From: Lachnospiraceae bacterium
GTDB taxonomy: Bacteria; Bacillota; Clostridia; Lachnospirales; Lachnospiraceae
Assembly (NCBI GenBank): GCA_051888725.1
Contig: JBJFCA010000163.1
Span: forward strand, 1 to 46,823
Reading direction: 5' to 3'
Length of the DNA stretch: 46,823 bases
Shown: positions 2,121 to 13,286 of the stretch, piece after piece
Position numbering within the stretch: the stretch's first letter is position 1
Layout: every line of letters begins with the position of its first letter
Made by a program: the position numbers and the translations under genes
The notes under the pieces: model-generated
Seen by the model: only the letters and a program-made list of their open reading frames with translations
Databases searched by the model: none
Told to the model about the DNA's origin: nothing

Positions 2121-4514
2121 CTAAAGGGATTTTGTTTGTTTTATCTTAGGCATGAGCAACACCAAAACGAAAAACAGGGCAAAGCCTGTAGGGATATAAG
2201 GCAGCATGACCCATTCCACAAGTCCGCAGACTCCAAAGGTACCAATTACCGCTACCGGTATGATGCCTGCTTTTTCCCCCCGGTGCTTTGCATAGTAGAG
2301 TATACTTCTGATAGCGAATACCACACAGAAAATCAGAAAATAAATACCCGCACCGATTCCGAAATCATATGCTACCTGAATATACGCATTGTGTGCATGG
2401 GCAATCATCTTCCCGTTATCTCCCGGAATCGCTACATCTTTATGCCCCTTCCAGTCTAAGAGAGAAAGATATTTTTTATAAATATCCATGCGGCCGTTGG
2501 AATAATCCACATTGCCGCCAATTCCTTCCTTTTCTTCCGTCAGTTCCGGTGAGGCATATGCTTTATTGCCTTCCTGCTCTTCCCCGGTCTGCGTTACTGC
2601 ATCGGACTGCCCCTTGTCATAATAGGTTAGTTTGGCATCAAATACTGCAAGAAATTTCCTTACTGTAATGTAACGGAAGGAATCCCATTCCTCTCCTTCT
2701 TTGATGGAATCCTGAAACCATTCTATCTCAAATGTCTGTGGTTTGTTATACACAGCAGGGATAATCCGGCAAGCCGTAAAGGTGCTTACAAAAAAGCCAG
2801 ATATCATGAGCAGCAAAAGGCCCGCCCGGCACATAGTCCGGACGATTCCATCCTTAAACTCAGTAAATGCCGTTACCAGCACCAGTAATACACACAAAAT
2901 TGCTGCTGCGTAAAGTCCCGTACGGGAAGCGGTAAGCAGCATAAATCCCGCTGAAAGACCAAATATCCATATTTCCTTCAGACACAGGGACAGTTTCCTG
3001 TTCTTTGCATATTTCACCAGAAAAACCGCAAGTGCAAGAACCATTACAAAACAGTCATATACTGCTGCAGAAGTTACCGTATGAAAAACACCCGGATATC
3101 TGGTATGGGTATAAAAATGAAACGGTCTGTGTAACCAGGCATAAATACTGATGCCGATAAAATGAATAAACACACCATTGACAAAACTCGTCAGGTATTT
3201 CTCCCTGCTGCCTCTTTGGTCAATCACCCTGAAAGCAAACAATGTCCAAAGTATCAGCAATAGAATGGGCCATTCTTTTCCGTTTCTGCTTCTCACAAAT
3301 TCTGTCAGAAGAAGTAACAGCATAACACTGTAAACAGGAGAAATTTCCTTCCAGAATTGTCTTTTGTTTTTTATATTCAGTATCAGATTATGGATTACAT
3401 TTATTACAATCATGCCCCATAAACTATAAGCCACAGCAGTGCCTCTGGAAACGACCAGGCTTTCTTCACCTGCTGCATGCTGCATACAATACCAGATACT
3501 CACTCCTGTAGCAATCGCCACATAAACCGGCTGATATACATTGAATAATTCTTTTTTTGTAAAACTGCACAAAATCGCCAGGGCAAAGCATGCAAGTGTC
3601 AGATTGCTTGCTGTCTTCTGATCAAAGTTGGACAGTGCATTCAGATATCGGACACAGCCTAACATGACGCCTGCAAAGCAAACTGACTGTAAAATACCGG
3701 GAAGTTTTGCAGTGCATTCCTCAAAAGTAATCGTTTTTTCTTCCGTCTCAGGTCTTTTTCGCAGTAAACAGTACAAAGAAAAGAGCAGAAACAACAGAAT
3801 TCCCACTTCATAAAAAATGATATCCACTGTTTCCGTTGCCAGCCTTCTTGCCGGAAACACATTATATGCTGCAAATACAGATCCTGCGACTACAAGAATT
3901 GCCGCAGGCAGACGCCAAAGCATATCCAGACCGACCTTACTCTCTTTTCTCCTGCGGAAAAACAGTTCTGTAAGACCTGCCAGTATCATGCAGACAACAA
4001 GTATCAGGCCCCCGATAAAAAGATATTGTTTCGGAGTAAAAAACACTCTGTATCCATAAAGAACATCCATATTGATGCCGTCTTTCATGGAAATCAACAG
4101 CTCATTGCCCGGACTTTCAACAGAAAAATAGTAAACCTCTCCCCCCTTCCATTCCCCACGCATGGGAATGGTAAACATTCCGGGTACATTATCTTCTGTC
4201 AATATAATCCGGCTATATTCCAGCTTGTTCAGATTGGCATCAAACAATCGAAAATAAAGGGGGGTTCCCTCTATATCCTCTGAATTTTCATTATATACAT
4301 AAAAGCTTATGGAGCGCAGGCAATCGTTGACCGGAATAAACTGTTGCAGAATCGTACCTTCGCTCACCACAATAGCGTCCGAATCCTCGCCTGCCTCTCC
4401 CAGATATTGCCATGGACGTATCAGCTTTAACGGCCAGACAGAGAGTATTGTCAGGAAAGATAGGAGCAGTATGGTTGCCTGAATGACTCTTTTTATTGTA
4501 ATTTTGTTTTTCAA
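2121..4514 (-). CDS. Large polytopic membrane protein with C-terminal O-antigen ligase/Wzy_C-like domain
   Basis: 797 aa, TTG start. Many hydrophobic segments. LTASRTG, SNGRMDIY and HAHNAYIQVAYDFGIG match the ligase-type SR...R...HN signature. Confidence 0.7.
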   Translation of the reverse strand: MKNKITIKRVIQATILLLSFLTILSVWPLKLIRPWQYLGEAGEDSDAIVVSEGTILQQFIPVNDCLRSISFYVYNENSEDIEGTPLYFRLFDANLNKLEYSRIILTEDNVPGMFTIPMRGEWKGGEVYYFSVESPGNELLISMKDGINMDVLYGYRVFFTPKQYLFIGGLILVVCMILAGLTELFFRRRKESKVGLDMLWRLPAAILVVAGSVFAAYNVFPARRLATETVDIIFYEVGILLFLLFSLYCLLRKRPETEEKTITFEECTAKLPGILQSVCFAGVMLGCVRYLNALSNFDQKTASNLTLACFALAILCSFTKKELFNVYQPVYVAIATGVSIWYCMQHAAGEESLVVSRGTAVAYSLWGMIVINVIHNLILNIKNKRQFWKEISPVYSVMLLLLLTEFVRSRNGKEWPILLLILWTLFAFRVIDQRGSREKYLTSFVNGVFIHFIGISIYAWLHRPFHFYTHTRYPGVFHTVTSAAVYDCFVMVLALAVFLVKYAKNRKLSLCLKEIWIFGLSAGFMLLTASRTGLYAAAILCVLLVLVTAFTEFKDGIVRTMCRAGLLLLMISGFFVSTFTACRIIPAVYNKPQTFEIEWFQDSIKEGEEWDSFRYITVRKFLAVFDAKLTYYDKGQSDAVTQTGEEQEGNKAYASPELTEEKEGIGGNVDYSNGRMDIYKKYLSLLDWKGHKDVAIPGDNGKMIAHAHNAYIQVAYDFGIGAGIYFLIFCVVFAIRSILYYAKHRGEKAGIIPVAVIGTFGVCGLVEWVMLPYIPTGFALFFVLVLLMPKIKQTKSL

Positions 4515-4643: not shown

Positions 4644-5396
4644 CTACTTATCCCCACCTGTCAGATTTAAATTTACACCGTTCATATACCCACACTCTTC
4701 CGACAACAAAAATTCAATGGCCGCCACAGTTTCCTCCACGTTTACATTCCGTTTCAGAGTACAGCTTTGCCTGTTCATCTCGATGATTCTCTCATCAATT
4801 TCACTTAAGAACTCTGTTTCCATCATATTGGGAGAGATGCCGTTTACGCAGATTCCCTTCTCTGCATATTCCATTGCCATACTCTTCATCAGACCGAGCA
4901 GCGCATATTTTGTCACCACATATTGTGACATGAATTTCGGCGGCATTCCCAAAGTAACGGCTGACAGCATAATCACGACCCTGCCGCTTCCTTTTTTCGC
5001 CATTTCCGGCAAAATGTGTCCGCCTATGGTAAGCAGGGAATGCACCTGCAGTTCCATATCCGCAGCAATTGCCTGCCAGTCAGCTTTCTTTAGTTTATTA
5101 TAAACTAATTTTTTAGCCGGCAGATGCACAAGGCAGTCCGGGCAGTCTCCCGCCTCTTTCATGACAGAAAGCATTCCTTTTACGTCTTCTTCTTTTGTCA
5201 AATCCGCTTTGATTGGAATAATTTCCACATTGGGCTCATTTTGTCGCAGTTCATTTAATTTTTCCCCATGGGAAGAAAAATGCGCATATATTTTCATATG
5301 TCTTCCATCATCTGTATGTCTGCCACACAAATTCTGAATCAGCTTTCTCCCTACTTCGGAAGAAGCTCCCGTAATCAGATATACCTTATTCTCCAT
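4644..5396 (-). CDS. SDR-family oxidoreductase (FabG/ketoreductase-like)
   Basis: 250 aa. LITGASSEVG Rossmann-like start, catalytic YVVTK (YxxxK), VNGISP, C-terminal YMNGVNLNLTGG. Confidence 0.85.
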   Translation of the reverse strand: MENKVYLITGASSEVGRKLIQNLCGRHTDDGRHMKIYAHFSSHGEKLNELRQNEPNVEIIPIKADLTKEEDVKGMLSVMKEAGDCPDCLVHLPAKKLVYNKLKKADWQAIAADMELQVHSLLTIGGHILPEMAKKGSGRVVIMLSAVTLGMPPKFMSQYVVTKYALLGLMKSMAMEYAEKGICVNGISPNMMETEFLSEIDERIIEMNRQSCTLKRNVNVEETVAAIEFLLSEECGYMNGVNLNLTGGDK

Positions 5397-5811
5397 CTTC
5401 CATGACTCCTATCTGCATACTGCCACGCAGTACTTTTTCCTGCTTTTGATTGGTTATGGTTACTTTTAATTTTATCACGGGGAAATGCTCGTTTTTTTCT
5501 GTCACTTCACCCTGAATCTTTAGCGTATCCCCTATAAACACCGGCTTTGCAAACTTCGTCTCCACGCTGTGAATCAGACTCTTTTCTCCCGGCAGGTATA
5601 CACCTGCAAGCGTGGATAAAAAGGATGCTGTCAGCATACCGTATGCCACCCTTCCCGGAAAGCCCTTCTTTCGGGCAAACTCCTCATCTGCATGAAGCGG
5701 ATTACAATCCCCGGTAATGGCATAAAAATGCTGCAGCATCTCTTCCGTTACCGATACGGTAAAACTCTCTGTCTGTCCTATAAAAATCTCATCAAATGCA
5801 TATTGATTCAT
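5386..5811 (-). CDS. MaoC/PaaZ-family hot-dog dehydratase
   Basis: 141 aa. Hydratase-2 motif TGDCNPLH, plus AYGML, LPG and FAKPVFIGD. Confidence 0.9.
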   Translation of the reverse strand: MNQYAFDEIFIGQTESFTVSVTEEMLQHFYAITGDCNPLHADEEFARKKGFPGRVAYGMLTASFLSTLAGVYLPGEKSLIHSVETKFAKPVFIGDTLKIQGEVTEKNEHFPVIKLKVTITNQKQEKVLRGSMQIGVMEDGE

Positions 5812-6881
5812 GGTATCTCATCTCCGTCATAAGCTGTATTCTCGACTTTGTCTAAAATGACTCTTTTCGCTTCACCGGACCGCTCCTTCCAGGTCTCATA
5901 TGCCAGATCCCAGGATGCATATTTCTCCTGCCCTCTTTTATCCGAAAGATCATAATGCTCCAACAGATACTTTTCCAGAAAATCCGTACATTTCTCTGCA
6001 CCCAGGGCATTGGCATGTCCGCCACCGTCATAAAAATCCGTAGCAAAGTCAATGCCGATTTCTTCCCGATATGCATTCATATCCAAAAACTGATAACCAT
6101 ATGACTGTACAATTTCCTGCATATAATTGCACATTTTCTGTTCATCATAAGTAAAATCCGTAGGGGAAATCACAAACAATGCCTGAAGATCATTGGCGGA
6201 TAAATACTCCAACAGTTCCCGCAATGTTTCTTCCTGTTCTTCCGGTATCGGCTTTGTTTCAGTAATACCACAAAGGTTGACTGCTTCTCCGGGTTCCACC
6301 TGTTCTTTTAACAAATATCCCTTCAGAGGGCTTTTCTTCTCATACAGGAAGGTCTTATACTGCTCCGGCAAAACCATGGTTTTCCAGTTATCGTGGTACT
6401 TGATAATATCGAAATAGTACGTATACCGTTCTGACACATCCGGTACCAGATCGTTGATGGTACGAATTCGATTACAAGAGTACTTCATGTTATCCGTAAC
6501 GCCTCTGGTATAAGCCATGTTTTCCATCATATGCTCATCCGTATAAGTAAACATTCTCATTTCAAAAATGAAAAGCTCCGGCGACTGGGTCTTAAGCGCT
6601 TCCTCCACCAGATGTATTGCTGCTTTGGGACGCTGTACATTGCTTGCTAACGGGTATGCGGTAAATCCGCATTCTCCCCACATTTTAGGCCCGGCAAAGC
6701 AGGGATAAACCGGACTGGAGCCGATCATCACCACGTCTATGGTATCATCCGGCTCTGCATAAAACCCCGTAAAAATATCCTTGATTACGCCGCCGGTGCG
6801 TACCATGTACGTAACCGGTATCAGCATGACCACAAACAGAAGACAAAAAAGAACGGATTTGAAAGCCTGTTTTTTATTCAT
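5808..6881 (-). CDS. Membrane-anchored SGNH/GDSL-like protein (DltD/AlgJ/PatB-type extracytoplasmic acyltransferase)
   Basis: 357 aa. N-terminal TM anchor, MIGSSP block-I serine and FYDGGGHANALG catalytic-His block. Directly follows an MBOAT gene. Confidence 0.75.
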   Translation of the reverse strand: MNKKQAFKSVLFCLLFVVMLIPVTYMVRTGGVIKDIFTGFYAEPDDTIDVVMIGSSPVYPCFAGPKMWGECGFTAYPLASNVQRPKAAIHLVEEALKTQSPELFIFEMRMFTYTDEHMMENMAYTRGVTDNMKYSCNRIRTINDLVPDVSERYTYYFDIIKYHDNWKTMVLPEQYKTFLYEKKSPLKGYLLKEQVEPGEAVNLCGITETKPIPEEQEETLRELLEYLSANDLQALFVISPTDFTYDEQKMCNYMQEIVQSYGYQFLDMNAYREEIGIDFATDFYDGGGHANALGAEKCTDFLEKYLLEHYDLSDKRGQEKYASWDLAYETWKERSGEAKRVILDKVENTAYDGDEIP

Positions 6882-6893
6882 TTCTTCTCCTCC

Positions 6894-8423
6894 TTAAAAG
6901 CCTCTGTAAATAAATTCCGCAGTACTGTATCCCGGTCCGTAGTACCCCAAAAGGATGACACCAAAAAGTGCCGCATAGAGAATGATCCACCTGCATACAA
7001 TGGGCATGGCTGCCAGTCTGTCACGTACGGATTTCTTTCCCTGCAAAACAGAAACCCAAAAAAGTATCAGCAACGAAGCCACTGCAATGAGCATCTCTAT
7101 GCCGTCAAGTCCCAGTGTAAGCAGACTGCCGTTTACGAAAATGTCCGGATTAAACTTAGCAAAGAGCTGTCTGTAAATATGCAGCCCCTCTGTAAAGCTG
7201 TCTGCCCTGAAGAAAACAAAGCTCGCACTTACAAGCAGGAAAGTCCTAAGCTGCTGCCAGATTCGAAACCACCGGGCAGTGTCCGTAACATGGCACCATG
7301 TTTTCATTTTTTTCCACACCGGTTCCAGGGCTTCCCCCGATACGATATAAAACCAGTGGATCAGCCCGGAGCCCATGATAAATTTCCAGGCACCGCCGTG
7401 CCACATACCCACGGCAAACCAGAGTACAAACATGGCAAGGAAGGTTGCAATTTTTTTCCCTGCTTTTTTACCGAATTTCTTTTTACAGGATGCCTGCAGA
7501 TTCGTAAACCATTTTGTCCGAAGAAGCGGATAAAACAGATAATCCTTCAGCCACGTTCCCAATGTAATGTGCCATCTTCGCCAGAATTCCTGAATGGAAC
7601 GGGAAAAAAAAGGTCTGTCAAAGTTTTCCGCCACCTTGATGCCCAATGCTTCGGAAAGGCCGATCACGATATCCATTCCGCCGGAAAAATCAGTGTAAAG
7701 CTGAAAGGCAAAGCATATGGCAGCAATGATGATATAAAACCCGCTGTAGGTAACAATGTCGCCATAAACGGTATTGACGATCACAGCCAGCCGTTCAGCA
7801 ATCACCAGCTTTTTGAAAAAACCCCACAGCATCCGCTGTAACCCATAAGTAAACTGTCTGTAATCAAACTTTTTCGGGTTGTAAAGCTCGCCCTCCACAT
7901 CCCGGTAACGTAAAATGGGACCTGAGATCATCACCGGAAAATAAAATCCAAACAATGCAAATTTAAAGAAATTGCGCTGGGGTTTTGCAATCTCATAGTA
8001 TACATCAAAAAGATATCCCAAAAGTGCCAGCGTATAAAAGGAAATGCCGAGAGGTGCCAGTATCTGTACGGTCTTTAACAGGCTGCTGCCCGGGAAAAGG
8101 CGCATGGCAACGGCATTATAGGTATAAACAGCAAAATTACAGTATTTTAACGTTGTCAGCATAAGAAGGCAGAAAACGACAACAAGTGAAAGGGCAATTT
8201 TTTTCTTTTTCTGCTCTTTCACTCTATCAATATACAAGGCTGCGCCATATATAATTGTAATTGTCACGGCCGGATATAGAATCAGATAAGCGTTTCCGGC
8301 CGTAAAAAAATATCCGATGCTTGCCACAAGCAGAACCACCCACCGGGCTTTTCCGGGTGTGAGATAGTACACCAGAAAAAGTGCTGCCACGAAGCACAGA
8401 AAATAAAATGATGTAATCGCCAT
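6894..8423 (-). CDS. MBOAT O-acyltransferase (AlgI/DltB/PatA family)
   Basis: 509 aa. PLGISFYT, SGPILR, QLYTDFSG, ENFDRPF, FWRRWHITLG, GMWHG (catalytic His). Ends in FIYRGF. Confidence 0.95.
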   Translation of the reverse strand: MAITSFYFLCFVAALFLVYYLTPGKARWVVLLVASIGYFFTAGNAYLILYPAVTITIIYGAALYIDRVKEQKKKKIALSLVVVFCLLMLTTLKYCNFAVYTYNAVAMRLFPGSSLLKTVQILAPLGISFYTLALLGYLFDVYYEIAKPQRNFFKFALFGFYFPVMISGPILRYRDVEGELYNPKKFDYRQFTYGLQRMLWGFFKKLVIAERLAVIVNTVYGDIVTYSGFYIIIAAICFAFQLYTDFSGGMDIVIGLSEALGIKVAENFDRPFFSRSIQEFWRRWHITLGTWLKDYLFYPLLRTKWFTNLQASCKKKFGKKAGKKIATFLAMFVLWFAVGMWHGGAWKFIMGSGLIHWFYIVSGEALEPVWKKMKTWCHVTDTARWFRIWQQLRTFLLVSASFVFFRADSFTEGLHIYRQLFAKFNPDIFVNGSLLTLGLDGIEMLIAVASLLILFWVSVLQGKKSVRDRLAAMPIVCRWIILYAALFGVILLGYYGPGYSTAEFIYRGF

Positions 8424-8435
8424 TGGCTGCTCCTG

Positions 8436-8672
8436 TTATTTCTGCAAAATAATGTCTACCATTTCACCCACGTTCTTCATGGTGACTACCTGTCCCATGG
8501 TAAACTTAAACCCAAATTCCTGCTCTACCGCAGCCACCAGATTAATGTGCTCTAAGGAATCCCAGTCCTCAATATCCGCAGAGGTCGTCGTTTCGTTTAC
8601 GGTAATATCCTCATCATCAAACACGTCCTGAAATACTTTATTCAGTCGTTCAAACACTTCTTCTCTTGTCAT
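8436..8672 (-). CDS. Acyl carrier protein
   Basis: Acidic ~78 aa protein with WDSLEHI phosphopantetheine-attachment motif. Start set to MTREEV (ATG at 8672, purine-rich RBS). Confidence 0.9.
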   Translation of the reverse strand: MTREEVFERLNKVFQDVFDDEDITVNETTTSADIEDWDSLEHINLVAAVEQEFGFKFTMGQVVTMKNVGEMVDIILQK

Positions 8673-8708
8673 GCTTCTTTCCTCTTTCCTGTTCTCCATT
8701 CCAGCCGG

Positions 8709-10490
8709 TTACTCTTCTACCGCAATGAAATGATTTTTTTTCTCATACTGTGCGGGAATTTCGAATTCCCATACGGCATTGCCTGCTTCGTCCCTATTCT
8801 GCAAGGAAAATCCCTGCAATCCGTAAAAATTCTCTACCATTTTGTTCTTGGCAGTGGGATAATAATATCCCCGTATTTTGCGAATGCCGCAGGCTTTGCA
8901 CTTTTCCACCAGACAATCCATCATGGCATATTCCATATCTCGCTTTAATACCCTGCAGCTCATCAGCCAGAGATCCACATGCAGCGTGTCCTGCTCCTTA
9001 CGCCCGATAACCACTGAGACAACACCGTTATCCCCGAATTTATCGGTCAGCCTGCCATATAAAGTGATATAGGATGCATCTTTTGCAATCTCTTCAATCT
9101 CTGCCTGACTAAACCGTCTGGTGGTCAGGTTAAACTGGTTACTCTTATTGGTAAGCTGGGCGATCCGCGCCATGTATAAGGGGGTAAATGCCCTGATTTC
9201 AGCACTCATCTGAAGGGATTTTAAGTATTCGCCATAATCGGTAAAGCTTTCCTTCAGTTTATCCCGTTCCTGATTGGCTTTGTACATTTCATTTCTTCTG
9301 GTATCGTCCTCTGAAAGGGAAGTTACTTCAAAAAAGCCGGACCGGTCTATCAGCTTCACATACTCTTCCGGCTTTTCTACCCGGGGTACCGCTACCCTGG
9401 GGAGGCTCTGCCTTATGATCTCCTGCTCTGCCGGATTATCATCCACAAACACCAGACTGTCCGGCCCGATATTTAATTCCGATGCAATCTGTGCCACGCT
9501 TTTACTCTTGGGCTCCCAGTTTGCTTTTATAATTACAAAGTCCTCAGGCTTTAGCACGCCATCCGGTCTGTTTAAGCCTGCCAGTGCATTCTCTTCTTCA
9601 TTTTTGGAACTCACATTCAGCATAATGCCGATCTTTTTCTGTTCCTTAAGGTAAGTCTGGAACTCTGCATAGACCTGCCCCATAGAGGTTTCCTGACCGA
9701 TTTCGATATTTTCCGGTCCATCATCCCCTACGACACCACCCCAGAGGGTATTGTCAAGATCCAGTACCAAAGCTTTTTTATTCTTCCCGTAAACAGACTT
9801 TATGATATTGGCAAGGTTAAAGGCAAGAGTGGGAATGGCAGGCACGCAAAGTGCGTACTTGTACATATGCCAGTAAAAAGAATCTCCCCACTTATCAAGC
9901 CCGTAGCAGGCTGACAGATACTGGATATCCTGCAGATAAAAATTCTCCTGCCCGGCTGCATAATCCGCAAACATGGCATTCAGACGATTGATAAAATAAA
10001 CCCGTCCGCTGTGATTCACCGCATCCTGGTTTCCAAGAAGTCTGTAATAAGGAAACTCGAAATTATTCTGGATAATGGGACAGTGATAGGTCTTTCCAAG
10101 CTGCTCCCACATCATATGAAAATGTTCAAAAGTCTCCTTCAGAAGATGCTCTGTCTGCTCCTTTGCATCTCCCGGCTCCGGATATGTCATAATATTACGG
10201 TTACTGGTATGAATATAAATCAAATCAGGCGCAAAGTCCTTTAACACCTCATTTTCAAACATGGCATCCTGCCAGTACTGCCCGTATTCCGATTCATAAA
10301 ATTCCGGTTCGATCCCATAATTTAAAAGAAACAGTTCCAGTACCTTGATAATGTCATGGGTTGTGCTGCCGCCTAAAACCGCAATTTTCTTTCTGATTCT
10401 GCTTTCCCCGTCCGAAAGAAGTGTTTTCTTAATACTCTTGGCCTTTTTTAAGATCCACTCACTGTCAAAGGGATATTCCAGTTCCTGCAT
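8709..10490 (-). CDS. FkbH-like HAD-IIIC phosphatase / glyceryl-ACP transferase with N-terminal extension
   Basis: VLDLDNTLWGG (DxDxT), SSKN, FVDDNPAE, QLTNKSNQFNLTT, DKFGDNG and LMSCRV (acyl-accepting Cys). Start set to MQELEY at 10490 behind GAGGAG. Confidence 0.92.
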   Translation of the reverse strand: MQELEYPFDSEWILKKAKSIKKTLLSDGESRIRKKIAVLGGSTTHDIIKVLELFLLNYGIEPEFYESEYGQYWQDAMFENEVLKDFAPDLIYIHTSNRNIMTYPEPGDAKEQTEHLLKETFEHFHMMWEQLGKTYHCPIIQNNFEFPYYRLLGNQDAVNHSGRVYFINRLNAMFADYAAGQENFYLQDIQYLSACYGLDKWGDSFYWHMYKYALCVPAIPTLAFNLANIIKSVYGKNKKALVLDLDNTLWGGVVGDDGPENIEIGQETSMGQVYAEFQTYLKEQKKIGIMLNVSSKNEEENALAGLNRPDGVLKPEDFVIIKANWEPKSKSVAQIASELNIGPDSLVFVDDNPAEQEIIRQSLPRVAVPRVEKPEEYVKLIDRSGFFEVTSLSEDDTRRNEMYKANQERDKLKESFTDYGEYLKSLQMSAEIRAFTPLYMARIAQLTNKSNQFNLTTRRFSQAEIEEIAKDASYITLYGRLTDKFGDNGVVSVVIGRKEQDTLHVDLWLMSCRVLKRDMEYAMMDCLVEKCKACGIRKIRGYYYPTAKNKMVENFYGLQGFSLQNRDEAGNAVWEFEIPAQYEKKNHFIAVEE

Positions 10491-10517
10491 TTTTTTACTC
10501 CTCTGTCCATGCCCTCT

Positions 10518-10546
10518 ATCATACCATACGCACCGGATTCCATCAA
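10518..10546 (-). promoter_or_regulatory. Putative sigma-A promoter of the FkbH-ACP-MBOAT cassette
   Basis: Minus strand TTGATG-N17-TATGAT with extended -10 (TGG-TATGAT). The -35 overlaps the upstream GT2 stop codon. Confidence 0.6.
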
Positions 10547-11478
10547 CTGTCCCTGCCCACAATCTCCTTCACCACATATTGTGGCGAATTGTTCATGCAG
10601 ACGTAGATTCTGCCGATGTACTCACCGATCATACCCATCATAAGCATGAGCATGCCACCGATAAACATGATGGCCGACATCAGGGAACTAAAGCCTACCG
10701 GCACTGCCGGATTTACAAATTTCTTGATGACGGTATAAATGGCGTAAAGAAATCCTAAGCCTGCACAAATCGTTCCTGCCATGGTTGCAAACCGAAGCGG
10801 CTTTACGGAAAACGAAGTAAAGCCATTAACCCAGAGAGCCAGAAGCTTACTGAAATTATATCCGGAGGTACCGATTTCCCGCTCCCTGTGTGTTACATCT
10901 ACATTGATAATGTTCTTGGTGCTGCGAAGCACCAGACCAATCACATAAGGAAATGCATTGGTGTAGCGAAGCACCTCATCGATTACAAACCTTCTTGCCA
11001 CAAAGTAGCTGGATACATATAAATCCTTTGGTTTCCCCAACATGACTCTCGTCATCAGTTCGTTAATCTTACTGCCAAAGTTACGGAACCAGGAATGTTG
11101 TTTATGGGCATATCTGGCATACACCACATCCGCACCATCTTCTATACCGGCAAGCAGCTTTCCGACTTCGTCTGCCGGTGTCTGCCCATCATCATCCAGA
11201 CATACCACCAGATCTCCCTTTGACTGGGCAAATCCCGCCATCAGCGCTGCATGCTGTCCGAAGTTTTTGGAAAGATTGACACCTTTTATTCTGCCGTCCT
11301 TCTCACAGATGTTGCGAATCACTCCGAAGGTATCATCCGGGGAACAGTCATTGACCAGTATCACTTCATACTCATAAGAAGTAAGACCTGCCATGGCATC
11401 GGTGATCTCTTTGACCACACCTTCTATTGTAAGCGCTGATTTGTAACAGGGAATAACAAAACTGACTAACTGCGACAT
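10543..11478 (-). CDS. GT2 polyprenyl-phosphate glycosyltransferase (ArnC/GtrB/DPM-synthase-like)
   Basis: VIPCY, VNDCSPD, SKNFGQHAAL, LDDDGQ, two C-terminal TMs and GEYIGRIY. Start set to MSQLVSF at 11478 behind AAGGAG. Confidence 0.9.
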   Translation of the reverse strand: MSQLVSFVIPCYKSALTIEGVVKEITDAMAGLTSYEYEVILVNDCSPDDTFGVIRNICEKDGRIKGVNLSKNFGQHAALMAGFAQSKGDLVVCLDDDGQTPADEVGKLLAGIEDGADVVYARYAHKQHSWFRNFGSKINELMTRVMLGKPKDLYVSSYFVARRFVIDEVLRYTNAFPYVIGLVLRSTKNIINVDVTHREREIGTSGYNFSKLLALWVNGFTSFSVKPLRFATMAGTICAGLGFLYAIYTVIKKFVNPAVPVGFSSLMSAIMFIGGMLMLMMGMIGEYIGRIYVCMNNSPQYVVKEIVGRDS

Positions 11479-11507: not shown

Positions 11508-13286
11508 CTATGAGGCCGGCTGTACCTGATATATACTGAAGACTTCCTGTCCCTCTGCATATACACTGTCTACTTTTTTCAGTTTGACAGCGTAATTCTG
11601 ATCGGCATAAAAAGCAGGCAGCCATTCTTCCAGCAGCGGATATCCGGAAAGCTCCGGTGATTTCACCACAATATAAACATCTTCCGTTAACAGGGCTTCC
11701 TGCATGGAAGAAAATCCAAACTTTTCATATTTTTCCCTTGTTAAAGGACTTTTATCTGCCCAGCCGCCCATAATATCAAGATTGGAGAGGCCGGCAGGAG
11801 AGGCTGTCAGCATTTTTTCCGAATACGCCACACTGGAATATACATCCCAGAAATAAAAACTGTCTTTTCGTTCCTTAACATATTCCTGCAGTGACAGGTA
11901 CGCCTGATTAACCTGCTCTCTGCGTGCAAACTCCTGTCCGGTTTTCGTAATGCCGGCTCCTGCATATAAAAAACAGATTATCAGCATAGCCAGTGCCGAG
12001 CCACAGGAAAGGATTGTCACGATTTTTTTCCGCGGCTGTTTGTGACATTCTGTAAGAAGTATGGCAAGCAGAATCAAACATTCCATCAGATAAAGGGAAT
12101 GGGTAATTCTCACAGGGCTTCTGCCCCGGTACAGAATAAAAAGCCACAGTCCGCTACGTACTGCAAAGAGAAAAGGCAGCTCCCAAAGGATATGCCAGTT
12201 TTTGTTGCAAAGCGCTGCTGCAAACACCAGCACATACAAAGTAATCGCCACTAAATTCCAGGGGCGGTCCGTTTCATACAAAAGGCGATATTTTAATTCC
12301 CATACAGCCTGCTTCAGTTTTGCCGTAAAAGAAGGCTGTACCCCTTTTTTTAATTCTGCGGCATAAGCAGCCACCTGACCCAGTACGTCAGCATTGATCT
12401 CTTCATCCAGGCCAAAATTATAATTGACAAGAAGGGTCTGTTCACTTTTGGTCAATCCTATACTTTCATAAAAGGCCTCATTTCCATCATAAGAAGGTAT
12501 ATACTGAAAATCATACAATTCTGTTCTGTTATCAAAGAATCGGTTAAATTCCTTCCACTGCTCGCTGCCATAGGCCAGTATATGCACGCCCTGACTTACG
12601 ATCATCCCTGCAAGAATCAGTCCAAACACCGAAAAATACTTCTGAAAATTTAGTTTTGTGAAAACAGGGGTTTCCCTTACCCAGCGGCACACTCCCGTTA
12701 CACAGATGAACGGCAGCAGCATCAAAAGGAGTTCCGTCCGCATCTGATACGCCAGAATAACCAGAACAATGCTGATTGTATTGTTTCTTAAAAACCCTTT
12801 CAACGTAGATGCGGGAGCTGAAGTAAAAAACAAAAATGCAGCCGTGGAAGCAAGCAGTGCCGCCGTAACGGTATACTGCACAAATACCAGATCCGATAAA
12901 AACAGCGTAATCAGAAGACCTGCTTCTATTACCAGCTGGACTGCCTTCTTCCATCTTTTGTCATAAAAACTTAAAAATCTTTCTGTTAGCAGATAGAGGC
13001 ATCCATACTGGCAAAGCAGAAAGAAAATCCCATACCAGGGAATATTTCTGCCAATGTGGTATAACAGGCTTAAGAAAAAGCTCAGCGGATAAAGCATCTG
13101 GATATTATGACCGGACGGAGTCCCTGTATAAATTCCCGCCACGATGTCTTTCATCAGCATATCGTCATTTAAGTCATAATAATAATCAAAAAAAGTGGCT
13201 GTGACGACGCAGAAAAGAGAAGAAAACAGAAATGCCCATATGCAGTTTTTCTTGTTCTTCAGTATCGTCTTGAAATCCGTTTTCAT
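11508..13286 (-). CDS. Polytopic membrane protein, possible GT-C fold glycosyltransferase
   Basis: 592 aa with about 11-12 hydrophobic segments. Acidic DLNDD motif after TM1. Adjacent to a polyprenyl-P GT2. Confidence 0.55.
   Translation of the reverse strand: MKTDFKTILKNKKNCIWAFLFSSLFCVVTATFFDYYYDLNDDMLMKDIVAGIYTGTPSGHNIQMLYPLSFFLSLLYHIGRNIPWYGIFFLLCQYGCLYLLTERFLSFYDKRWKKAVQLVIEAGLLITLFLSDLVFVQYTVTAALLASTAAFLFFTSAPASTLKGFLRNNTISIVLVILAYQMRTELLLMLLPFICVTGVCRWVRETPVFTKLNFQKYFSVFGLILAGMIVSQGVHILAYGSEQWKEFNRFFDNRTELYDFQYIPSYDGNEAFYESIGLTKSEQTLLVNYNFGLDEEINADVLGQVAAYAAELKKGVQPSFTAKLKQAVWELKYRLLYETDRPWNLVAITLYVLVFAAALCNKNWHILWELPFLFAVRSGLWLFILYRGRSPVRITHSLYLMECLILLAILLTECHKQPRKKIVTILSCGSALAMLIICFLYAGAGITKTGQEFARREQVNQAYLSLQEYVKERKDSFYFWDVYSSVAYSEKMLTASPAGLSNLDIMGGWADKSPLTREKYEKFGFSSMQEALLTEDVYIVVKSPELSGYPLLEEWLPAFYADQNYAVKLKKVDSVYAEGQEVFSIYQVQPAS

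Follow-up and report, generated by a model that had tools for sequence, protein, structure and literature searches.

Carrier-bound conversion of glycerate to lactate has been found described only for antibiotic assembly lines in the literature that we searched. In FR901464 and lankacidin biosynthesis, DH-KR proteins turn glyceryl-S-ACP into lactyl-S-ACP (PMC4765723, in the part of the text available). A second set of relevant systems acts at the cell envelope, and the accessible part of a 2025 paper on MBOAT/SGNH pathways (PMC12148441) describes them, Dlt excepted, as drawing on acyl-CoA with no carrier protein, gives the acyl-Tyr shuttle hexapeptide of PatA as FIYANF, and contains no mention of FkbH. 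Lactyl and glyceryl groups do occur on bacterial polysaccharides, and the available parts of PMC4432689 and PMC7685785 give no gene route to them.

We analyzed a 46,823-nt stretch of Lachnospiraceae DNA (the window; contig JBJFCA010000163.1 of assembly GCA_051888725.1), the minus strand of which encodes, according to its list of open reading frames, a GT2 gene, FkbH, ACP, MBOAT, a 357-aa SGNH-like protein, MaoC, and SDR, in that order. The FkbH-like glyceryl-ACP loader (HAD-IIIC; 8709..10562) scores 308.6 bits against TIGR01686, for which the cut-off is 146.65, matches FkbH_N, and carries DLDNT and MSCR motifs; its true start is probably later, because most homologues align from about residue 25. 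It is followed by a dedicated acyl carrier protein (ACP; 8436..8699; PF00550, WDSL motif) that falls below the cut-offs of the NCBIfam ACP models, by an MBOAT acyltransferase of 509 aa (6894..8423; PF03062, WHG motif, C-terminal hexapeptide FIYRGF), and by a membrane-anchored SGNH/DltD-like protein of 357 aa (5808..6881), likely the outer acyl transferase, a weak assignment. Last come a single hot-dog MaoC dehydratase of 141 aa (5386..5811; PF01575), predicted to be a glyceryl-ACP dehydratase and belonging to a YGML-type clade, and an SDR of 250 aa (4644..5396; PF13561 and PF00106), predicted to be a 2-oxoacyl(pyruvoyl)-ACP reductase of a GASS[D/E]xG subfamily. The first-pass annotation of this DNA had described a stand-alone MaoC and SDR that overlap and end the FkbH cassette, and the coordinates, the 11-bp overlap of the two genes, and all eight of eight close relatives, most of them Lachnospiraceae, in which the order FkbH-ACP-MBOAT-SGNH-like-MaoC-SDR is kept, agree with that description. 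The SGNH-like and MaoC genes overlap by 4 bp (ATGA), AGGAG lies 9 nt ahead of the SDR ATG, and the SDR at the cassette end is followed by a 129-bp gap with one sigma-70-like site at 4585-4557, a weak one because the scan returned 19 sites against an expected 14.4 +/- 3.6.

The cassette is surrounded by glycosyltransferases, a flippase, and pseudaminic acid genes. Between positions 13286 and 21812 are PseC, PseG, a PseI-PseH(GNAT) fusion, PseF, a PglK-like ABC flippase, and a GT52/polysialyltransferase-like gene, and the locus probably builds a pseudaminic-acid-containing glycan. Large membrane proteins stand on both sides of the cassette (2121-4514 and 11508-13286), a position kept in close relatives; the 797-aa protein has only a weak Wzy_C/O-antigen-ligase match (E 0.0014), and the 592-aa protein has no family match. 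None of the window ORFs scanned matched PKS/NRPS, and a family search of the ORFs of the cassette returned no further tailoring or cytoplasmic acyltransferase gene. The source genome, which is 68% complete, contains an AcpS-family match and, on another contig (C59), a separate FabG-like gene adjoining an ACP-like gene. The same genome has a second ACP-MBOAT-SGNH-like locus (L133, G000:C152:5000-13536), which lies at a contig end, so that its loader is out of view.

The SDR had been noted at first pass to keep YxxxK and to have an atypical Rossmann motif. Both features are present in the window protein (TGASSEVG, S145, Y159xxxK163), with the refinement that the motif is a family-wide signature and not a quirk of one copy. 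Across 150 aligned relatives (146 comprising 50%-cluster representatives and the window protein itself, plus 4 closer matches), the loop reads G-A-S-S, then D (95), E (33), A (13), S (7), G (1), or T (1), then I/V/L and G; the second Rossmann Gly is D/E in 128/150 and kept as Gly in a single one. Since the loop is conserved across these 150 relatives, TGASSEVG is a subfamily signature and not decay. S13, Y159, S/T145, and D/N65 are found in 150/150, G10 in 149/150, and K163 in 148/150, and the position of the NAG motif reads HLPA/HLAA, with Q/S in place of the Asn of classical SDRs. A divergent SDR can lack the second Rossmann Gly and still bind cofactor, as FabI does. The predicted structure is a complete Rossmann fold (pLDDT 96.8) for which FabG/PhaB are the nearest solved structures, and the cofactor would probably be NADPH, because strand 2 ends without an acidic residue. 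The protein differs from FabG/PhaB in both the TGxxxGxG and the NAG motif and scores below the curated cut-offs of their models (TIGR01830, 94.3 vs 297.75; TIGR01829, 99.5 vs 302.1), and in a quick tree of 76 SDRs it falls in a 56-row clade (SH-aLRT 95) apart from FabG-like proteins.

The MaoC protein scores 79 bits against PF01575 (cut-off 27) and keeps D35 and H40 of DxNPxH, a dyad kept without exception in 39 clade members. In a quick ML tree with 88 domains (112 before near-identical rows were dropped) and 139 columns, the protein falls in a 69-row clade with a long stem and SH-aLRT 99, outside of which are 16 generic MaoCs and three proteobacterial fusions. HGML is replaced by YGML/FGML in most rows of the clade, and the nearest solved structures are (R)-enoyl-CoA hydratases. 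Clade members show FkbH, ACP, or SDR linkage in all cases except L102, a link that is partly by construction because many of the rows were found via SDR. L102 (G095:C18), which sits among purine genes, is the one in-clade MaoC for which neither ACP, FkbH, nor SDR was seen nearby; about 86 kb off, at L052 of the same genome, is a broken SDR adjoining FkbH-ACP.

How does this pair compare with the polyketide starters? The plasmid p1 PKS of Burkholderia sp. FERM BP-3421 (WP_273995518.1) begins with MaoC, adh_short, FkbH, ACP, and KS, and pSGRIFU1 of Streptomyces griseofuscus encodes a 499-aa MaoC-SDR protein, ACP, and FkbH adjoining a PKS gene, which we take to be the lankacidin set. The FR901464/spliceostatin and pSGRIFU1 starters match the window in all four functions and in the Pfam families used (MaoC with DxNPxH, SDR with YxxxK, FkbH, and ACP); as in the FR901464/lankacidin type, FkbH and ACP stand in one unit and the MaoC Asp/His and SDR S-Y-K residues are in place. 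However, DH and KR are fused in the PKS starters and are separate genes in the window, which has no fused DH-KR feeding a KS/condensation domain; the window MaoC is a single hot-dog, whereas in the PKS DH* a degenerate second repeat of this fold is present; and the product primes a PKS/NRPS in the FR901464-type system, whereas the window pair lies in a glycan locus with MBOAT as the likely acceptor. Kinship to DH*/KR* beyond superfamily level was not found: the window MaoC is 29% identical to DH*, which the generic and clade MaoC profiles score equally (36.0 vs 33.7 bits), the window SDR aligns with KR* at 14%, and PKS KRs fall outside the SDR clade, on long branches. Because DH*/KR* are matched no better by the window proteins than by generic family members, the PKS system is an analogy and not an orthologue, and the window MaoC and SDR are best read as a recruitment parallel to PKS lactyl starters. 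As to the precedents initially put forward for the pair, FR901464 holds up, its MaoC and adh_short being of the Pfam families seen in the window pair, and bryostatin was not confirmed in the literature searched.

Linkage to FkbH was followed through a family sample of 300 genomes, one per genus, with thresholds of E <= 1e-30 for FkbH and E <= 1e-25 for SDR. FkbH was present in 53/300 genomes and SDR in 13/300, all 13 within the FkbH set and 10 of them with SDR no more than ~10 kb from FkbH; the hypergeometric value for this co-occurrence, 4e-11, is overstated because kin genomes are not independent. The MaoC search of the family returned 33 places outside the own genome. The 16 MaoCs of at least 45% identity are all in FkbH genomes, 12 of them at an FkbH locus, three by DUF4910, and one among purine genes. 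The weaker places (16 of 17 fetched) lie in crotonase/CoA-transferase operons, sugar loci, and pseudaminic acid operons, and none of these 16 loci holds FkbH or a clade SDR in the stretch fetched. When FkbH places were taken as the starting point (57 of 60 fetched), eight had both MaoC and SDR, four MaoC only, one SDR only, and 44 neither, a count in which one locus holds a broken SDR and 22 have MBOAT; since only 8/57 hold both, MaoC and SDR are an optional add-on, and neither gene depends strictly on the presence of the other. In a context-blind test, the MaoC clade profile was run against 300 genomes of the order and all 13 matches were fetched, a match being called in-clade if it scored higher on the clade profile than on a generic MaoC profile. 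All six in-clade MaoCs had the YG motif, an adjoining SDR, and FkbH in the locus; six of the seven lower-scoring HGM-type MaoCs were without both SDR and FkbH, and the seventh (L227), an intermediate, is in a MaoC-SDR-FkbH-ACP locus. A phylum-wide search with a broad SDR profile was swamped by FabG-like matches, with only G334 clear (ACP-MaoC-SDR with FkbH), and there were no relatives among the viral contigs searched.

Metagenomic loci show the same association in rearranged form. From a scan of metagenomes the best 80 of 217 SDR relatives were kept, several of their loci being near-duplicates. In this set, MaoC was within 400 bp of SDR in 70/71 loci with at least 200 bp upstream, ACP within 1.5 kb of SDR in 53/58 loci, and FkbH present in 16/20 full-flank loci and in 30/40 with at least 3 kb upstream. 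The four full-flank loci without FkbH within 7 kb are three ACP-MaoC-SDR-LbH loci and L168. At L168 and L169 the MaoC-SDR pair comes after NeuB, a formyltransferase, and PseG, and L168 is without ACP. Gene order is shuffled among loci, and ACP-MaoC-SDR stay together with or without MBOAT. MaoC-SDR or MaoC-SDR-ACP fusions adjoin FkbH on proteobacterial plasmids. Two fusion types are represented (L123, L125, L126, P0134): in Niveispirillum, FkbH adjoins a PKS-like DH-KR that retains a remnant of a second hot-dog, and on Maritalea and Erwinia plasmids a MaoC-SDR-ACP fusion, also seen in an Oleiphilaceae protein, lies by FkbH. Three records initially considered as in-clade MaoC-SDR fusions (P0292, P0294, P0295) were rejected, being one-member, one-contig records with a missing or junk junction that are probably frameshifted overlaps. 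About 55 canonical 400-aa MaoC-SDR fusions exist, and MaoC-SDR pairs also occur with canonical motifs; these fusions were left out of the linkage evidence because their gene context was not visible. MaoC and SDR are thus supported as an accessory of the FkbH/ACP module, and to this extent the first-pass claim stands: the genes occur in the same genomes, remain neighbors where loci are rearranged, and encode proteins of clades tied to FkbH/ACP.

The remainder of the cassette resembles known envelope acylation systems. Like Dlt (DltA/C/B/X/D) and PatA/PatB, the window combines an MBOAT that has WHG, with its catalytic His, and a C-terminal F-x-Y-x-x-F motif (FIYRGF vs FIYANF in PatA) with a putative SGNH-like partner, and the carrier protein is common to the window and Dlt. 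It differs from Dlt/PatAB in that the loader is FkbH and not an adenylation enzyme, that the carrier-bound group is apparently tailored, and that the MBOAT itself includes the shuttle motif. The cassette is not a Dlt pathway proper, having FkbH in place of a DltA-type loader and an MBOAT well under the threshold of the DltB model (TIGR04091, 145.6 vs cut-off 375). In the SGNH-like protein, G54/S56 (GSS) and D282, H289, and N291 (D..HxN) are conserved in 16 homologues; five of the 16 members have a weak GDSL_2 match, the window copy scores below that cut-off, PDB matches have E >= 0.2, and the single-sequence model is unusable (pLDDT 42.8). By analogy with these systems, export of a C3 group via MBOAT onto the glycan of the locus is plausible. 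The first-pass annotation had spoken of an exported group; export through MBOAT would suit the window but is not universal for the MaoC-SDR pair, as MBOAT is found in 10/20 full-flank SDR loci among the best 80 of 217.

Taking these comparisons together, we consider it rather likely, by analogy, that MaoC and SDR convert glyceryl-ACP to lactyl-ACP, and that MBOAT and the SGNH-like protein then carry the lactyl group through the membrane to a surface glycan. At the outset, 1,3-bisphosphoglycerate would supply the D-glycerate to be loaded by FkbH on ACP, an established FkbH reaction for which the motifs are present. Following the PKS precedent, MaoC (D35/H40) would remove the 3-OH to give an enol that tautomerizes to pyruvoyl-S-ACP, and SDR (S145/Y159/K163, probably with NADPH) would reduce the 2-ketone to lactyl-S-ACP. 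If MBOAT acts as PatA and Dlt do, the acyl group would move first to the Tyr in the FIYRGF of the MBOAT, from there to a Ser of the SGNH-like protein, and finally to a hydroxyl of the glycan that the locus builds. Because the PKS starter is not detectably orthologous, the glyceryl to pyruvoyl to lactyl sequence is an inference by analogy, and because the chemistry is already known from polyketide starters, the surprise is limited.

The main rival to lactyl export is a different ACP-bound product, since MaoC-only, SDR-only, and further-tailored cassettes exist. Here the pair would still act on the FkbH-loaded ACP, but the final group would not be plain lactyl: pyruvoyl could be exported or elaborated, SDR could oxidize or epimerize C2 of glyceryl, or a cytoplasmic transferase could replace MBOAT as user. 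We regard this as unlikely, though it has material behind it. FkbH-ACP-MaoC without SDR is seen in 4/57 loci and FkbH-ACP-SDR without adjoining MaoC in one plus the broken copy; some cassettes (L062, L194, L188, L205) contain inserted genes of transketolase-like, aldo-keto reductase, or methyltransferase type; and in many loci LbH, GNAT, AT3, or AAC(3)-like transferases stand in place of MBOAT. Against this, an additional tailoring or cytoplasmic acyltransferase gene is missing from the window cassette, an in-clade MaoC occurs elsewhere in each of the two genomes whose FkbH loci have SDR only (G131 and G095), and dehydration with 2-keto reduction is the only chemistry that we found described for FkbH, MaoC, and SDR together (PMC4765723, available part).

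Several variant loci are of interest in their own right. Split transketolase-like genes lie inside FkbH-ACP-MaoC cassettes at L062 (G234:C1), which also has the aldo-keto reductase, and at L194, and could add a C2 unit to pyruvoyl-ACP, yielding a branched acyl group. In-clade SDRs at L049 (G075:C2) and L050 (G279:C16) are accompanied by an AMP-binding ligase instead of FkbH/MaoC, the L050 locus including ACP and the L049 locus MBOAT and the SGNH-like gene, a layout that would suit direct loading of a 2-oxo acid followed by its reduction. Five loci (L078, L079, L103, L104, L105) combine an AAC(3)-like N-acyltransferase, DUF4910, (FkbH), ACP, and an in-clade MaoC, frequently with a Sir2 gene added and SDR missing; this set is reminiscent of the glyceroyl-pseudaminic acid genes cj1295-cj1302 of Campylobacter. 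At six others (L084, L092, L094, L096, L097, L098), FkbH and an ACP-like gene lie amid pseudaminic-acid-type genes without MaoC/SDR, and these are candidates for glyceroyl-modified nonulosonic acids.

A more distant reading, raised as an alternative in the first-pass annotation, is that MaoC and SDR work independently of FkbH, with crotonyl- or acetoacetyl-thioesters as substrates and (R)-3-hydroxybutyryl-CoA/ACP as a product destined for pseudaminic acid or a different sugar. PhaJ-type (R)-enoyl-CoA hydratase and FabG/PhaB, the types to which the closest solved structures belong, share folds and catalytic residues with the window MaoC and SDR (including the DxNPxH dyad at D35/H40), the window holds pseudaminic acid genes, the L168 pair after NeuB and PseG has no FkbH or ACP nearby, and 3-hydroxybutanoyl-pseudaminic acid exists (PMC7685785, available part). 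Yet the window proteins have YGML and GASS[D/E]xG where PhaJ/FabG have HGML and GASRGIG, fall in separate clades, and score below the listed NCBIfam cut-offs; the HGM motif, grouping with the crotonase/Pse MaoCs, and a neighboring sugar N-acyltransferase are all lacking. The reading is further weakened because the MaoCs of Pse operons belong to another group, with an LbH transferase (PseC-MaoC-PseG-LbH-PseI at L118; also L121); they and the crotonase-operon MaoCs, which are 32-44% identical and keep HGM, fall outside the clade, with FkbH or a clade SDR in the stretches fetched at none of 16 loci, whereas in the window PseI is fused to a PseH-like GNAT and no LbH transferase was found among the Pse genes. 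One enzyme alone would also suffice for this product, and the dependence on FkbH would be left unexplained, so that we hold it to be quite improbable. That the SDR has lost cofactor binding and is a noncatalytic partner of MaoC or ACP, as the second Gly of TGxxxGxG kept in one relative of 150 and the HLPA/HLAA reading of NAG might suggest, is very unlikely, because the catalytic triad is conserved, with Y159, K163, S/T145, G10, and D/N65 near-invariant and a full Rossmann fold modeled.

No description of an FkbH-ACP-MaoC-SDR(-MBOAT) glycan module was found in the literature searched, which included few subscription papers, and the available parts of PMC7600079, PMC11575545, and PMC13721041 contain nothing on this module. 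What is added here are the clade definitions, the negative control provided by MaoCs without FkbH, and the non-orthology to PKS domains. The likely lactyl-ACP product involves four soluble proteins, which makes the claim directly testable by intact-protein mass spectrometry.

Evenly poised between acceptance and doubt is a broader proposal, of a widespread and previously undescribed plug-in system. In it, a glycolytic intermediate would be edited on a dedicated ACP by interchangeable enzymes and then used by transferases that are likewise interchangeable, one of them an ACP-fed MBOAT-SGNH exporter. Cassettes with no editing enzyme would then give glyceryl, those with MaoC pyruvoyl, those with MaoC and SDR lactyl, and those with further genes for transketolase-like proteins or methyltransferases larger groups; the two clades, of MaoC and of SDR, would have been recruited independently of the PKS lactyl starters and would predict lactylation of gut-bacterial surface glycans from sequence alone. 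The lactyl groups on E. coli polysaccharides are ethers made by another route. If the lactyl-export reading is true, it would show by which genes bacterial glycans can acquire lactyl groups in ester or amide linkage and would add a second carrier-protein-fed MBOAT pathway besides Dlt, and the YGML MaoC and GASS[D/E]xG SDR signatures would predict whether a surface is decorated with glyceryl or with lactyl.
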